Assembly (NCBI GenBank): GCA_045598895.1
Contig: JAZRUZ010000036.1
Span: 1-53,890, forward strand
Source of the DNA: Candidatus Onthoplasma sp.
GTDB lineage: Bacteria; Bacillota; Clostridia; Christensenellales; UBA1242
Direction of reading: 5' to 3'
Length of the DNA: 53,890 nucleotides
Positions 5,191 to 23,815 of the stretch are shown here, piece after piece. The notes beneath the pieces were generated by a model. That model was not told where the DNA came from. It saw nothing but the letters and a program-made list of their open reading frames with translations, and did not search any database. The position numbers and the translations under genes are program-made. Positions within the stretch are counted from its first letter, which is position 1. The number at the start of each line of letters is the position of its first letter.

Positions 5191-6594
5191 CTACACTTTT
5201 AATAATTTTAAAAGGTTAGTTCCACCTGTTTTATTGATTTCTCCACAAACGACAACTACATAGTCGCCTTTTTTTGCAAGATTTAATTTTAAAACAAATT
5301 GTTTAACAACATCAAACATTTCGTCAGTAGAAACATATTTCTTTCCTAAAACTGACATAACCCCATAAAGTATAGATGTTTCTAGTTTTACTTTTTCGTT
5401 GTTACAAATAGCTAATAAATCTACGTCTGGCCTATATTTACTTATTAAACTTGCAGTAAGGCCTGTATTGGTAAATACAACTATCACTTTAGCGTTACTA
5501 ATTGATGCTGTTTCAACTGCAGATTTTGCAATAATTTCAGTAGTTGAATTGCATTTTCTATTAGCCAAATCCGAAAAATCTATTTCTAAATTCTTTTCAG
5601 TTGCAAGGCACGCTTCGGCCATAGTTTTAACTGCTTCCACAGGATAATTTCCACTAGCAGTTTCGCCAGACAACATAACAGCACTTGTTCCGTCATATAT
5701 AGCATTTGCTATATCGCTTATTTCAGCCCTAGTTGGACGAGGAGAATCAATCATACTTTCTAGCATTTCAGTAGCAGTTATTACTGCCTTACCATTTTCT
5801 CTACTTTTTCTAATAATAGTCTTTTGAATCTGAGGAACTTTACTTATATTTACTTCTACTCCTAAGTCACCACGTGCAACCATTATTCCATCACTCGCTT
5901 CAATAATTTCATCTAGATTTTTAACGCCCAATTTTGACTCAATCTTTGAAATAATTTTCATTGTACCATTGTGTGTCTTAATAAATTCTCTAAGCTCGTT
6001 AACATCTTCAATGGAGTTTACGAAACTTGCTGCAACAAACTCAATTTTATTCTTTATAGCCCACAACAAATCAGTCTTATCTAATTCGTTTAAATATGGT
6101 GTATTAAATTTTAAATTAGGAATACTCATACTTTTTTGATTTGCAATTACTCCAGAATTTAATGCCTTTGTAAACACATTACCATCTTCTATTTTAGTAA
6201 CCCTGAAATTTAAAAGTCCATTACAAGTAAGTATCTTTTGTCCAACTTCTAATTCACTTAGAACTTTTGGCATGTTTACACTAACCATATGTTCACTACC
6301 TATAAGATCTTTAGTCGTAAAGATGAATTCTTGACCTTTAACTATCTTTGCACTACCATTTTTAAAAGTCTTAACTCTTAATTCCGGTCCTCTTGTATCT
6401 AAAAGTATTGGAAGATTTACTTTTAGTTCGTTCCTAACTTTTTTTACATTTTCGAGAACTGACGCATAAAAAGTGTTAGTTGAATGAGATAAATTTATCC
6501 TAACTATATTCATGCCAGCATTGACCATCTTTTTTAGCATAGAAACACTATTAGTCTTTGGTCCAATTGTGGCAATAATCTTTGTCTTTTTCAT
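5191..6594 (-). CDS. pyk: Pyruvate kinase
   Basis: MKKTKIIATIGP N-terminus and the MVARGDLGVE motif. I chose the ATG at 6594 (SD GAGGGG upstream) over the TTG-extended ORF ending at 6642. Confidence 0.9.
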   Translation of the reverse strand: MKKTKIIATIGPKTNSVSMLKKMVNAGMNIVRINLSHSTNTFYASVLENVKKVRNELKVNLPILLDTRGPELRVKTFKNGSAKIVKGQEFIFTTKDLIGSEHMVSVNMPKVLSELEVGQKILTCNGLLNFRVTKIEDGNVFTKALNSGVIANQKSMSIPNLKFNTPYLNELDKTDLLWAIKNKIEFVAASFVNSIEDVNELREFIKTHNGTMKIISKIESKLGVKNLDEIIEASDGIMVARGDLGVEVNISKVPQIQKTIIRKSRENGKAVITATEMLESMIDSPRPTRAEISDIANAIYDGTSAVMLSGETASGNYPVEAVKTMAEACLATEKNLEIDFSDLANRKCNSTTEIIAKSAVETASISNAKVIVVFTNTGLTASLISKYRPDVDLLAICNNEKVKLETSILYGVMSVLGKKYVSTDEMFDVVKQFVLKLNLAKKGDYVVVVCGEINKTGGTNLLKLLKV

Positions 6595-6711: not shown

Positions 6712-7062
6712 GGGGATGATTTAGTTTCGACTAATAAGTTCTAACTTTATACGCATGTCGTGTGGTGGCACGTTAAATACACATTTCGTGTCTACGAAAA
6801 AAAATAAACGACAAAACAAATTTACTTGCTACTGCTGCTTAGTCAGCGAGCCGTTAGTCTGTTGGTACCGATACAATAGAGCCTAACGTCGTTTATCGGT
6901 GAACGTGCTTGTTTATTGCCGAGTAAACAAGTACGCACTTTTCGGCTAGTCTAAAATCAGTGTCAACGAAGTGATTTAGACGAATTTAGACATTGACTAA
7001 ACATGTAGTGTATGATTTTATCGCCTATTAGGACATGGGGGCAGTTCCCATCATCTCCACCA
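6712..7062 (+). ncRNA. ssrA: tmRNA (transfer-messenger RNA)
   Basis: The 5' GGGGAUG pairs with the 3' CAUCUCC-ACCA, giving an acceptor stem with the G3:U alanine identity pair. A T-arm-like GGGGGCAGUUCCCAU is present. The internal tag frame ends ...GAC AAA ACA AAT TTA CTT GCT ACT GCT GCT TAG (stop at 6840-6842). smpB is nearby. Confidence 0.85.
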
Positions 7063-18784: not shown

Positions 18785-19990
18785 TTATTTAATGATTTCA
18801 GCAACTACGCCTGAACCAACTGTTCTACCACCTTCACGGATAGCGAATCTCATACCCTTTTCAATAGCGATTGGGTGGATAAGTTCGATTTCCATAGTGA
18901 TGTTATCGCCTGGCATAACCATTTCAACTCCGTCTGGAAGTTTGATTGAACCAGTAATATCAGTAGTTCTAACATAGAATTGAGGACGATATCCATTGAA
19001 GGATGGAGTATGACGTCCACCTTCTTCTTTCTTCAAAACGTATACTTCAGCCTTGAATTGAGTATGTGGAGTAATTGAACCTGGTTTAGCAAGTACTTGT
19101 CCACGCTCGATTTCAGTTCTGTCGATACCACGAAGAAGCAATCCAGCGTTATCTCCTGAACGAGCTTCGTCAAGTGATTTACGGAACATTTCGATACCTG
19201 TAATAACTACTTTACGAGTTTCTTTAATACCTACCAACTCAACTTCTTCGTTAAGTTTAACAGTACCACGTTCTACTCTACCTGTAGCAACAGTACCACG
19301 ACCAGTAATTGAGAATACATCTTCAACTGGCATTAAGAAAGGTTTATCGTTATCACGAACTGGATCTGGGATGTAAGAATCAACAGCATCCATTAATTCT
19401 TTGATACAAGCGCAAGCTGGATCATCAGTGTTACCAGCAGTAGCAGCTTCCAAAGCCTTTAATGCAGAACCCTTAATAACTGGAGTAGTATCTCCTGGGA
19501 ATCCATATGAAGACAACAAGTCTCTGATTTCCATTTCTACTAAGTCTAAGATTTCTGGGTCATCAACTTGGTCTACCTTATTCATGAATACAATAATGTA
19601 TGGAACACCTACTTGACGAGCAAGCAAAATGTGTTCTTTAGTTTGAGGCATTGGACCATCTGTTGAAGCAACAACAAGGATAGCACCATCCATTTGTGCA
19701 GCACCAGTAATCATGTTTTTAACGTAGTCAGCGTGTCCTGGGCAGTCTACGTGAGCATAGTGACGTTTATCAGTCTCATACTCAATGTGTGATGTATTGA
19801 TTGTGATTCCACGTGCTCTCTCTTCTGGAGTGTTATCAATATCTGCGTAACCTTTATCGTCAGCTTGGTGACCAGTTTTACTCAAATATACATTGATAGC
19901 AGCAGTTAAAGTAGTCTTACCGTGGTCTACGTGACCAATTGTACCAATATTACAATGTGGTTTAGATCTATCAAATTTAGCTTTAGCCAT
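18785..19990 (-). CDS. tuf: Elongation factor Tu
   Basis: [17 protein letters not shown] and NKVD motifs; 401 aa. Confidence 0.97.
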
Positions 19991-20103: not shown

Positions 20104-22185
20104 TTATTCTTCGCTAGCCTTTCTTTCGCCAATGATTTTATCACTAACGTTTTTAGGGCATTCAGCATACTTTTCAAATACCATTGTGAAGTCTGCTCTA
20201 CCTTGGGTAGTACCACGAAGGTCAGTTGTGTAACCGAACATTTCAGACAATGGAACTTCGGCATGAATTGTAACGTTACCGTTAACAGTATCAGTACCTG
20301 TCAAAACTCCTCTACGAGAAGTAAGTCCACCCATAACACCACCAAGATATTCTTCTGGAGTGTTAACTTCAACTTTCATAATAGGTTCAAGTAAAACTGG
20401 GTCTGCCTTTCTCATAGCTTCTTTAAATGCCATAGATCCTGCGATCTTAAATGCCATTTCGCTTGAGTCGACATCGTGGTAAGAACCGTCGTAAACGTTA
20501 ACTTTGAAGTCAATTGTTTCGTATCCAGCAAGTACACCAGATTTCTTAGCTTCTTGAATACCAGCATCAATTGGAGCGATGAATTCTTTAGGAATAGCAC
20601 CACCGACAACGGTATTTTCGAAGACATAACCTTTATCTCTTTCAAGAGGTTCCATCTTAATCTTACAGTGACCATATTGTCCACGACCACCAGATTGTTT
20701 AATATACTTTCCTTCAGCTTCAACAGCACGACGGATAGTCTCTTTGTAAGCAACTTGTGGGCGACCAACATTTACTTCAACATTAAATTCACGTTTCATA
20801 CGGTCAACCAAAATATCAAGGTGAAGTTCTCCCATACCAGCGATAATTGTTTGACCAGTTTGGTCATTAGTGTATGCCTTAAATGTAGGATCTTCTTCCA
20901 TCAATTTTTGAAGAGCAATACCAAGTTTTTCTTGTGCTTGCTTGTCTTTTGGTTCAATAGCCTCTTCAATAACTGGTTTCATGAATTCCATATCTTCAAG
21001 TTTAATAGGGTGATTTTCATCACAAAGAGTGTCACCTGTACCTGTTGCTTTAAGACCAACAACAGCACATATGTCCCCTGCTAATACTTCATCAATATCA
21101 GTTCTTGAGTTTGCGTGCATGTGAAGCAAACGACCAATTCTTTCTTTCTTATCTTTACTTGAATTAAGAACATAAGAACCAGCAGCAAGTTTACCACTAT
21201 ACACACGAATAAATGTAATACGACCAACATATGGGTCAGTAGCAATCTTAAATGCAAGTGCTGCGAAAGGTTCGTCATCACTGTTGTTACGAGTAACTTG
21301 ACTTCCGTCAGCAAGTGTACCAGTAATTGCTGGTACGTCAATTGGGCTAGGCATATATTCAACGATTGCATCAAGCAATTCTTGAATACCTTTGTTTCTA
21401 GCAGCAGTTCCACAAAGAACAGGGAACATTTGAAGACTACAAGTAGCCTTTCTAATGCCAGCCTTGATTTCTTTTTCAGTGAGTTCTTCACCAGAGAAGA
21501 ATTTTTCTAACAATGCTTCGTCAGTTTCAGCAACTGATTCAATCATTTTTTGTCTGTATTCTTGAGCCTCAGCGAGCATATCAGCTGGGATTTCTTCCTC
21601 TCTAACATCTTTTCCAAGATCATCATAGAATACGTATGCTTTCATCTTAATAAGATCAACAATTCCTTTAAAAGTTTCAGCTTGACCAATAGGAAGTTGA
21701 AGTGGAACAACATTTGCTCCTAATACATCTTTCATTGATTTAACTGCTTTCAAGAAATTTGCATCATTGATATCCATCTTGTTTACGAAACAAAGTCTTG
21801 GAACATTGAATTTACTAGCTTGACGCCAAACATTTTCTGATTGTGGTTGAACGCCAGCTCTTGCACTGAATAATGCAACAGCACCGTCCAATACTTTCAA
21901 TGAACGTTCAACTTCTACTGTAAAGTCAACGTGTCCTGGAGTATCAATAATATTAATAGTACAATCTTGCCATTTACAAGTAGTACAAGCAGAAGTGATA
22001 GTGATACCACGTTCTTGTTCTTGTGCCATCCAGTCCATAGTAGCTTGTCCATCATGAACTTCACCTAACTTATGGTTGATACCTGTATAGAACAAAATTC
22101 TTTCTGTTGTAGTTGTTTTACCAGTATCGATGTGAGCCATGATACCGATATTTCTAATTTTTTCCAATGGAACAGTTCTAGCCAT
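20104..22185 (-). CDS. fusA: Elongation factor G
   Basis: 693 aa with AHIDTGKTT and DTPGHVDF; follows rpsG. Confidence 0.97.
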
Positions 22186-22200
22186 TTTTCCCCCTTATAA

Positions 22201-22671
22201 TTACCAACGATAGTGAGCGAAAGCCTTGTTAGCTTCTGCTTGTCTATGCATATCGTCACGTTTTCTAATTGCACCACCTGCTAAATTACAAGCGTCTACA
22301 ATTTCAGCTGCAAGTCTTGCTTCCATACCACGTTCATTACGCTTTCTAGCGCATTCAACTAACCAACGGATTGCAAGAGTTTGTTGTCTTTCAGCACTAA
22401 CATCCATAGGAACTTGATAGTTAGCACCACCAACACGTCTAGCTTTAGTTTCAAGTTTTGGTTTGATGTTCTCGATAGCTTTGTTTAAAGTTTCAAGAGC
22501 TTCTTCACCAGTCTTTTCACTAGCATTTTTCATAGCAGTATAAACGATAGATTGAGCAATACCTTTCTTTCCGTCTAACATAACTTGATTGATAACTTTA
22601 CTAACCAAGATTGAGTTGTAAACTGAATCAGGTAATACTTCACGTTTAACAGCCGCATTTCTTCTTGACAT
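22201..22671 (-). CDS. rpsG: 30S ribosomal protein S7
   Basis: 156 aa, [15 protein letters not shown]... ending ...AFAHYRW. Confidence 0.97.
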
Positions 22672-22815
22672 AAATATTTCTCCTTTATTAAATTTTTAAT
22701 CTAAATTCACTTTTCGCACTGAATAATTTTTTAAAATATTAATTATGTATAAACGATTATTTAAAAACAATCCTTTTTTTTATAAAATTTTAAATTAAGT
22801 TGTCCTTAAATAACC

Positions 22816-22941
22816 GAAGGCGAAAAGTCTAAATAACATCCTATTCAAAAGAGTAGGAAGAAGGGAAAAGCATTTGTCCCTTCTTATTAAGCGAGCAAAC
22901 AGCCTAAAAGTGCTAAATTTTTTCGCTTGACAACTAATTAG
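22816..22941. repeat. Structured intergenic element, copy 1 (126 nt)
   Basis: About 96% identical to 23019-23144. Contains an 8-bp stem TCCTATTC/GAGTAGGA with an AAAA loop and a 9-bp stem AAGAAGGGA/TCCCTTCTT. GCGAAAA pairs terminally with TTTTCGC. Confidence 0.8.
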
Positions 22942-23018
22942 TATAGACTATTGCTTCTATTATATCCTTATCAAAGGGTTTATATTAAAGGGGAAAATCT
23001 GTTTCCCATTTAATAATA

Positions 23019-23144
23019 GAAGGCGAAAAGTCTAATAACATCCTATTCAAAAGAGTAGGAAGAAGGGAAAAAGCATTTGTCCCTTCTTATTAAGCGAGCA
23101 AACAGCCTAAAAGTGCTAAATTTGTTCGCTTGCGAACTAATTAG
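23019..23144. repeat. Structured intergenic element, copy 2 (126 nt)
   Basis: Direct repeat of copy 1, 203 nt away, ending 8 nt from the rpsL stop. Has the same stems, plus GCGAGCAAA/TTTGTTCGC and a GTTCG-CTTG-CGAAC hairpin. Confidence 0.8.
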
Positions 23145-23152
23145 CTAAAAGG

Positions 23153-23524
23153 CTACTTTGCTCGCTTAGCGCCATATTTACTTCTACCTTGTTTACGATT
23201 TTGAACAGCAGCTGTATCCAATGCGCCACGAACAACGTGATATCTTACACCTGGAAGGTCTGGAACACGTCCGCCACGAACTAATACGACGTTGTGTTCT
23301 TGAAGATTGTGTCCTTCACCTGGAATGTAGCAAGTTGTTTCTTTGCCATTAGATAAACGAACACGACAAATCTTACGTAAAGCTGAGTTAGGTTTCTTTG
23401 GAGTAGTAGTAGTAACTGTCAAACAAACACCACGTTTTTGTGGGCAGTTCTCAAGCAAAATTGATTGAGATTTTGTAACTTGTTGTTTTCTACCTTTTCT
23501 AACCAATTGATTAACTGTAGGCAT
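23153..23524 (-). CDS. rpsL: 30S ribosomal protein S12
   Basis: [12 protein letters not shown]... 123 aa. Confidence 0.97.
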
Positions 23525-23706
23525 TATATCCTCCTTAAAAATTTTCTATATATTATTAAACACTCAAAACAATTTCAAGTCATTCAATAAAAATTTTTGA
23601 TTTTACCTAAATCAAGAAAAGTTTAGTTTTAATAAACTAACAAAAGCAACCACTTTTGGCTTACGCCAAGTAATGACAAAGCAGCACGTTTGTACAATAC
23701 TGTTTA

Positions 23707-23735
23707 ATTATACCTAATTTCAACTCTAATGTCAA
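23707..23735 (-). promoter_or_regulatory. Consensus str-operon promoter (TTGACA-17 nt-TATAAT)
   Basis: -35 at 23730-23735 and -10 at 23707-23712. Leaves a leader of about 175 nt before rpsL. Confidence 0.6.
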
Positions 23736-23780
23736 TATTTTGAGTAAAAAATAATGAATTATTTTCACTATTTTAAAACA

Positions 23781-23810
23781 AAAAAACGACTCGTGATTGA
23801 GTCATTTTTT
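23781..23810 (-). terminator. Terminator after rplQ
   Basis: GACTC / GAGTC hairpin (23788-23803) flanked by A7 and T7. The stem is short. Confidence 0.45.
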
Positions 23811-23815
23811 TATAA

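Follow-up and report, generated by a model that had tools for sequence, protein, structure and literature searches.

Autoregulation of the str operon by ribosomal protein S7 is a textbook case that, to our knowledge, is known only in Escherichia coli and its close relatives; the E. coli S7 translational operator was reportedly described by Saito and Nomura in 1994. In E. coli, S7 binds the intercistronic RNA between rpsL (encoding S12) and rpsG (encoding S7), represses only the rpsG translation that is coupled to rpsL, and retro-regulates rpsL via mRNA destabilisation (PMC10931766; PMC3616713). Conserved elements mark the gammaproteobacterial S7 operator: helix H-III carries AGUAA/UGAAN, and the three-stem junction has CCA/UUGGR (Fu et al., 2013; PMC3616713). 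According to reviews, long rpsL-rpsG spacers occur commonly in other phyla as well, with no conserved structure defined in them (PMC3616713; PMC10931766). None of the 20 ribosomal-protein leader (r-leader) candidates reported by Eckert and Weinberg (2020; PMC7247131) concerns S7, S12 or the rpsL-rpsG spacer, and our literature text searches found no S7 or S12 leader described outside Gammaproteobacteria, save an old cyanobacterial note. Here we analyse the rpsL-rpsG spacer of a 53.9-kb stretch of bacterial DNA (the window). An earlier note, made from the letters of the window, had pointed out that this spacer is 481 nt long (22672-23152) and that it holds two 126-nt direct repeats, at 22816-22941 and 23019-23144, which differ by three substitutions and two 1-nt indels. 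Both observations hold; the repeats are 96% identical over about 126-136 nt, with weaker similarity reaching out to 22806/23009.

The two repeats arose by tandem duplication of a folded stretch of the str-operon mRNA, which is read from the minus strand. This stretch belongs to a family restricted to the 'Candidatus Onthoplasma' clade, gut Christensenellales with reduced genomes. In its ancestral form the unit begins inside rpsL, whose last codons and stop codon form helices H1/H2 with a strand lying some 60 nt further on; these helices enclose a hairpin, P2, after which come a second hairpin, P3, a pyrimidine tail and a small hairpin, P4. The rpsL-proximal repeat (copy 2) is the intact unit, and the rpsG-proximal repeat (copy 1), together with a fragment at 22956-23017, results from later local duplications that are decaying. 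The 481-nt spacer is an ancestral unit of about 130-200 nt plus at least two local duplications. The key pairing of the element, missed in the earlier note, is made by TAAGCGAGCAAA, which is present in both copies and matches the last rpsL codons at 23157-23168 perfectly over 12 nt in inverted orientation (0 of 500 shuffles).

Copy 2 (23042-23169, minus strand) is a complete family member according to models built from relatives only; it forms 27 of the 27 model pairs, and its minimum free energy (MFE) is -52.1 kcal/mol. About the last five codons of rpsL and its TAG stop (23153-23155) make up the 5' strand of the outer helix H1/H2, CUAAGCGAGCAAAGUAGCC (23151-23169), which extends 2 nt past the stop codon. 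The 3' strand, GGCUGUUUGCUCGCUUA (23091-23107), pairs with this rpsL end or, alternatively, with the internal AAGCGAACAAA. The apical hairpin P2, GUUCG-CAAG-CGAAC (23124-23137), matches the UUUUGC..GCAAAA or AAUUGC..GCAAUU hairpin of the relatives. P3, AAGAAGGGA...UCCCUUCUU (23060-23088), is the most conserved helix of the family; its base reads UAAGA in the window and UAUGA in the relatives, and the opposite strand carries the compensating change. P4, CCUACUC-UUUU-GAAUAGG (23041-23060), contains a single C-A mismatch when read in the sense direction; its counterpart in the alignment is the CCUUUUAAUAGG tail of the relatives, and it lies outside the covariation-supported core. The stems listed in the earlier note, TCCTATTC/GAGTAGGA, AAGAAGGGA/TCCCTTCTT and GCGAGCAAA/TTTGTTCGC, were all located in the repeats.

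The relatives were surveyed in 22 related species with S7 identity of at least 77% (L-numbers denote the relatives' loci), whose rpsL-rpsG spacers measure between 32 and 992 nt. In an all-against-all BLASTN comparison of these spacers the window element could not be aligned to the relatives by sequence, and only the approximately 30 nt before rpsG matched. Since BLASTN missed the similarity, the match between window and relatives rests on structure and weak sequence likeness. When the spacers were read, a common motif of about 125-135 nt was found directly after rpsL in L001/L008, L012, L019 (twice), L021, L024, L026, L027 and L029, and independent single-sequence MFE folds gave the same mRNA-sense architecture in all nine instances. 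The 5' strand of a rod of 20-25 bp with internal loops comes from the final rpsL codons and stop of each species itself, except that second copies use the preceding tail; the 3' strand of the rod lies about 60-75 nt downstream (H1, H2), and the rod encloses P2. It is followed by P3, UAUGAGGGA...UCCCUCAU in the relatives, and by the pyrimidine tail GACUCCUUUUCCUUUU with the small P4. The rpsL ends vary by species (AGAGCCAAAUAA, CCUAAGUAG, AAGCCGAAAUAA and CGACCAAAAUAA; GCGAGCAAAGUAG in the window), with matching changes in the partner strand. In a rough tree of S7 and EF-G the motif-bearing species (motif-bearing relatives include DWVI01, CALBOE01 and CANQWK01) lie on many branches, including the deep one of the window, and such a scatter fits an old, vertically inherited element that has been repeatedly lost.

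Homology was assessed with two covariance models from which the window was excluded, R1 (six relatives) and R2 (nine relatives), each searched against the whole window with filters off. R1 placed copy 2 first (23042-23169, minus strand, 37.6 bits, E 4e-6) and copy 1 second (22840-22930, minus strand, 30.3 bits). R2 aligned all helices of copy 2, at 41.8 bits (E 6e-7); copy 1 (22840-22930) scored 28.6 bits, its 5' domain being collapsed. The third-best window match of either model, at 6361-6448 on the plus strand (15-18 bits, E 0.05-0.25), lies just upstream of a transfer-messenger RNA (tmRNA) gene and is probably due to chance. Among the relatives, the models matched only between rpsL and rpsG, at 62-126 bits (L008, L012, L015, L019 twice, L021, L024, L026, L027 and L029); the R2 search covered the clade and four outgroup loci. 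R1 recovered four members that had not been in its seed (L015, L021, L024 and L029), all at this junction, where L010, L002 and L009 also gave weak matches, and R2 gave 62.5 bits on the non-seed L029. Over 83 sources R1 found nothing convincing (E<0.1) outside the clade. Copy 2 thus has the model match, the rpsL outer helix (CUAAGCGAGCAAAGUAGCC/GGCUGUUUGCUCGCUUA), P2 and P3, and the position after rpsL in operon orientation; copy 1 keeps P3 and has neither the rpsL outer helix nor P2.

Covariation among the relatives' spacers, a check that the earlier note had set in advance, was found. In the alignment of nine relatives, 19 of 27 pairs changed on both sides, and 95.9% of cells were paired, against 44-51% when the partner was slid by 1-3 columns (0 of 500 shuffles). 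With L029 and window copy 2 added (11 sequences), covariation is seen at 23 of 27 pairs, with a score of 0.72 where slid controls give 0.10-0.18, and 96.6% of cells are paired against 44-50% (0 of 500 shuffles); the pairs were counted in model-fitted alignments, which inflates the percentage paired. The nine single-sequence folds are independent of model fitting, as is P3, the one helix recovered by MAFFT and RNAalifold on the nine relatives; the 5' domain was modelled from the single-sequence folds and a hand-written structure. What emerges is a concrete, covariation-supported RNA family at the S12-S7 junction of a reduced-genome gut lineage, undescribed before.

Copy 1 (22806-22941, minus strand) shows how the duplicates have fared. 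Its P3 (22858-22885) and P4 (22839-22858) are intact, and precisely the three substitutions that distinguish the copies have broken up its P2 (22921-22934); the earlier note was right to assign all three to GTTCG-CTTG-CGAAC (23124-23137), a hairpin intact in copy 2 only. These substitutions cluster in the 14 nt of P2 (22921-22934 versus 23124-23137) and touch both of its arms, so that a single template-switch event does not explain them; either P2 of copy 1 was selectively dismantled or P2 of copy 2 was maintained. The 3' strand of copy 1 pairs with the internal AAGCGAAAAAA instead of the rpsL end, and the upstream flank of copy 1 was not significant as an rpsL 3'-end remnant or outer-helix partner (477 of 2000 shuffles). 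The earlier note had held both the flanks and the intervening DNA to be unrelated to the repeats. This is true of the flanks; between the repeats, however, 22956-23017 (minus strand) is a degenerate third partial copy, derived from the 3' half of the element, with a P3-like hairpin at 22983-23015 and a P4-like tail (score 34 versus 17.7±3.3 in shuffles; z=5, 0 of 1000). Low-stringency BLASTN gave nothing further in the window, and repeat cores of 28 and 31 nt occur exactly twice each in the 53.9 kb, with 0 expected. An assembly artefact is unlikely because the copies differ at five positions and are separated by distinct sequence.

The rest of the spacer, about 134 nt of AT-rich, non-repeated DNA (22672-22805, minus strand), was not significant as a further decayed copy; it contains the rpsG Shine-Dalgarno sequence AAAGGAG (22680-22686), and conservation in the relatives is limited to its last approximately 30 nt. 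A 9-nt complement at 22709-22717, from which the earlier note had derived mutually exclusive pairing with copy 1, is within chance expectation (164 of 1000 shuffles). Inside the decayed middle copy (22947-23007), a terminator-like hairpin at 23007->22991 is followed by a promoter-like TTAATA-18-TATAAT at 22988->22959; these are no more than consensus matches in AT-rich DNA, but if genuine they could divide the operon transcript in two. In L019 (2092-2335 of CALWTK010000008.1; 101 and 126 bits) the motif has been duplicated in tandem independently, and the outer helix of the second copy is built from the tail of the first, with compensatory changes (AAGCGG/CCGCUU).

How does this motif compare with described RNAs? 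At the gathering threshold, Rfam 15 reported only the tmRNA (6712-7062) in the whole window, and no family in the window spacer or in 15 relatives' loci, in keeping with the earlier note, which had recognised no known riboswitch or leader; three relatives' motifs gave no match at E<=0.5. The best sub-threshold match of the spacer at E<=10 was to the Staphylococcus aureus small RNA (sRNA) tsr26 (RF02579), at 28.6 bits against a gathering threshold of 141. The two are alike in that copy 2, on the minus strand, has an outer stem enclosing two hairpins; the relatives' motifs, however, give no tsr26 match, and we regard the likeness as chance. When Rfam 15 was run on the rpsL-rpsG region of E. coli K-12 itself (L090; NC_000913.3, 3473000-3475000), no match was found at E<=0.1. 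The classical S7 operator thus has no Rfam 15 model, and its hallmarks were used for comparison instead.

With the E. coli operator the Onthoplasma motif shares its genomic position and strand, an RNA structure that begins at or inside the end of rpsL, and an rpsL stop codon that is base-paired in the predicted folds of both (the MFE fold for E. coli). It differs in having no sequence or architectural homology: E. coli has a three-stem junction in a 96-nt spacer, whereas the Onthoplasma motif is a rod plus hairpin, separated from the rpsG start by up to about 350 nt or by a whole gene. A UAAUCG internal loop, found in four of ten relatives at the equivalent position 23-24 and absent in the window, resembles GUAAUCG of 16S rRNA, a sequence that we confirmed. 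This 16S segment lies at the base of helix 43, and the hexamer match is a lead only. With the Rfam r-leaders and those of Eckert and Weinberg (PMC7247131) the motif has in common a narrow distribution, covariation support, a place in the transcript of a ribosomal-protein operon and a ligand suggested by context; the r-leaders lie in 5' untranslated regions (UTRs), whereas the Onthoplasma motif is intercistronic and overlaps a coding 3' end. By analogy, the motif would be an operator of a ribosomal-protein operon in kind, and it is a member of no described family.

Taken as a whole, we consider it fairly probable that this is a duplicated, clade-specific mRNA structure that has its anchor at the rpsL stop codon and a cis-regulatory role. 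The element probably helps to control the S12-S7 operon. Ribosomes terminating on rpsL would have to melt H1/H2, so the fold would report on rpsL translation; the pairing of the rpsL stop codon thus suggests how such translation could be sensed. In its most likely use, a ribosomal protein would act through the element to set downstream expression and/or the fate of the rpsL mRNA, and S7 would be the obvious candidate ligand, on the model of E. coli. The extra copies probably add little function, and their presence explains the abnormal length of the spacer. With the alignment and model in hand, S7-type regulation beyond Gammaproteobacteria can be put to the test.

Several observations weigh against this reading. 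About half of the clade species have no motif, with spacers of 32-110 nt, so it is dispensable. Among the 11 family members AGUAA and UUGGR are found in none (0/11 each), and UGAAN is sporadic and at non-equivalent positions. The distance from motif to rpsG start is unconserved (about 70-350 nt), and in L012 a whole ThyX-like open reading frame (ORF) separates the two; both facts argue against direct occlusion of the rpsG ribosome-binding site. The window shows about 6% of the genome, and a few copies elsewhere are possible. The inflated pairing percentages belong on the same side, as does the better folding of the plus strand, which is taken up below. Of the lineage-specific S7 leader proposed in the earlier note, the lineage-specific structured S12-S7 RNA stands, with compensatory variation in at least nine related species; a simple leader that occludes the rpsG ribosome-binding site is weakened by the tie to rpsL and by the gene in L012. 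That inserted ORF, of about 230-247 codons, lies between rpsL and rpsG in L012 (1639-2500), L018, L020 (1714-2457) and L022; its resemblance to ThyX/Thy1 is weak (22.5 bits for PF02511, a little short of the cut-off of 24.8), and a gene insertion within the str operon is unusual.

It is tempting to go further and to see here a new class of ribosomal-protein operator, most likely for S7, a 'stop-codon clamp' in which the helix would be opened by the terminating ribosome and closed or stabilised by free ribosomal protein, the tandem copies in the window and L019 being functional multi-operator variants. This stronger version we regard as tentative and rather unlikely. A clamp on the stop codon would serve a mechanism of the E. 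coli kind, with repression limited to coupled translation and retro-regulation of rpsL. If true, the clamp would set the fate of the rpsL mRNA and the downstream expression of rpsG-fusA-tuf, and Gammaproteobacteria would no longer be the only group with a defined S7-type autoregulatory RNA, the new case coming from genomes of less than 1 Mb.

The main rival to a cis-regulatory structure that senses a ribosomal protein is a processing or stability function. The rod H1-H2-P2 would then serve for processing of the RNase III/RNase Y type or for 3' protection, so uncoupling the rpsL message from the downstream genes (rpsG-fusA-tuf, or the inserted gene) with no ribosomal-protein sensor. The anchoring of the motif to the 3' end of rpsL and not to rpsG, from which its distance varies and in L012 a gene divides it, speaks for this, as do the length of the rod with its internal loops and the fact that other Christensenellales enclose the rpsL stop in a hairpin of different sequence. 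A pure stabiliser, however, needs neither an invariant UAUGA/UCAU base of P3 nor a conserved pyrimidine tail. Nor do the two explanations conflict, given that S7 retro-regulation in E. coli acts through mRNA destabilisation, and a processing or stability rod may coexist with protein binding. As a full account of the element we judge it unlikely, with a chance of roughly one in several.

We find it improbable that the whole spacer is neutral junk, the product of functionless local repeat expansion at a hot spot of slippage, duplication and insertion. The junction is indeed plastic: spacer length varies widely among species with S7 identity of at least 77%, tandem duplications arose independently in the window and L019, a decayed third fragment sits in the window, and many species lack the motif. 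Yet four helices have been kept by compensatory changes across otherwise unalignable spacers, and the strand complementary to each species' own rpsL 3' codons has been retained. Copy 1 and the fragment are the only parts for which neutrality is likely. There is nothing out of the ordinary in the duplication itself; the plasticity of the rpsL-rpsG junction in the clade, with motif loss, tandem duplication and gene insertion, is unusual and notable at a coding density of about 91-93%.

We give very little credence to an element read from the other strand, be it an antisense sRNA pair opposite the str operon, as the earlier note had suggested, or another plus-strand element. That note had left the functional strand undecided, since some stems contain G:T pairs that become A:C in the operon sense, and this is indeed so for P4 and the internal alternative helix. 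Taken singly, both copies do fold better on the plus strand, with z-scores of -4.2 and -5.4 against -1.95 and -2.9 on the sense strand, and a weak promoter-like site lies at +22760-22788. The comparative evidence, however, indicates that the functional strand is the operon-sense (minus) strand. In the family-model search the plus strand of the repeat region scored 7.7 bits against 41.8 on the minus strand, and antisense matches in the relatives reached 20-32 bits against 62-126 in the sense orientation. Across the relatives, G-U cells that are valid on the sense strand only outnumber A-C cells 5 to 1. Moreover, the outer helix draws on rpsL coding sequence, the orientation is always that of the operon, and a terminator scan found none on the plus strand.

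Equally hard to credit is a miniature mobile or dispersed intergenic repeat, similar to miniature inverted-repeat transposable elements or repetitive extragenic palindromes, that landed twice in the spacer; the earlier note had considered a small repeat family. Two near-identical, hairpin-rich copies and the palindromic CTAATTAG at one repeat edge would suit such an origin. No other copy, however, is present in the 53.9 kb of the window, which covers about 6% of the genome, or in about 420 kb of relatives' loci, where homologues occur at rpsL-rpsG only, and exact scans with 22-base P4/P3 core patterns gave 0 matches in GTDB genomes, JGI metagenomes and IMG/VR. The flanks of the repeats are unrelated and carry no target-site duplication, and the complementarity to the host rpsL end co-varies among species. 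In metagenomes the P3-tail consensus of the relatives had two matches, neither of them next to rpsL or rpsG, which we attribute to chance.

Weakest of all is the idea that conservation reflects coding, or ribosome loading after rpsL, through a short leader or re-initiation ORF of 15-22 codons starting at the relatives' invariant AUG at the base of P3. This AUG does stand at the same place in all relatives, 2-6 nt beyond the partner strand of the rpsL stop, and the frame that it opens runs for 15 codons or more, in many cases stopping within the P4 loop. A pyrimidine-rich tract, however, can be expected to contain such a frame, the subtypes do not share one frame in the conserved tail, the peptides are unconserved, no Shine-Dalgarno sequence precedes them, and both window copies have lost the AUG (UAAGA) yet kept the base pair via a compensating change. 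An intrinsic terminator or attenuator was likewise discarded, as the scan gave none at P3 or P4 (the sole terminator-like site being 23007->22991), and in the relatives the U-rich tract begins at least 5 nt after the P3 stem. Pairing of the P3 loop with the 3' strand of H2, as a pseudoknot or alternative fold, and pairing of the pyrimidine tail with the rpsG Shine-Dalgarno sequence were both inconsistent across members when inspected by eye.

The str operon of the window lies on the minus strand, directly downstream of rpsD-rpoA-rplQ, and comprises rpsL (23153-23524), rpsG (22201-22671), fusA (20104-22185) and tuf (18785-19990); the order rplQ-(variable)-rpsL-rpsG-fusA-tuf is common to the window and its relatives. 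In a scan of GTDB species representatives the window was placed among metagenome-assembled genomes named 'Candidatus Onthoplasma', uncultured Clostridia or Christensenellales. The S12 of the window is 92-97% identical to that of the relatives and the nearest S7 is 88% identical; exact-protein look-ups with the two gave no other record. Genomes of the family UBA1242 measure 0.75-0.92 Mb, with a coding density of about 0.90-0.93 (PMC12306168), and it is to a genome of this size that the figure of about 6% for the window refers.

The 291-nt gap between rplQ and rpsL (23525-23815, minus strand) holds a sigma-70-like TTGACA-17-TATAAT site at 23735->23707, found in a consensus scan only, with a 12/12 consensus match. 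This promoter-like site is the likely start of the transcript that bears the element, and would mean a 5' UTR of about 175 nt for rpsL. In the relatives the rplQ-rpsL interval carries instead an ORF of 77-82 aa (no Pfam match) or other genes. For the tmRNA gene at 6712-7062 on the plus strand the tools disagree: Rfam gave RF00023 at 113 bits, and ARAGORN no tRNA or tmRNA in the window.

Other Christensenellales have rpsL-rpsG spacers of their own, of 160-220 nt, which are conserved and highly structured and differ from those of the Onthoplasma clade and among three groups (L031/L033/L039/L046; L063/L077/L082/L086; L062/L064/L067/L072/L074/L078). The spacers of L033, L039, L063 and L067 gave no Rfam match, and the three groups seem to represent additional S12-S7 intercistronic RNAs not yet described. 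A co-varying hairpin of other sequence likewise encloses the rpsL stop in the L063 group, where the segment UGGUGAAUAG resembles GGUGAAUA of 16S rRNA.

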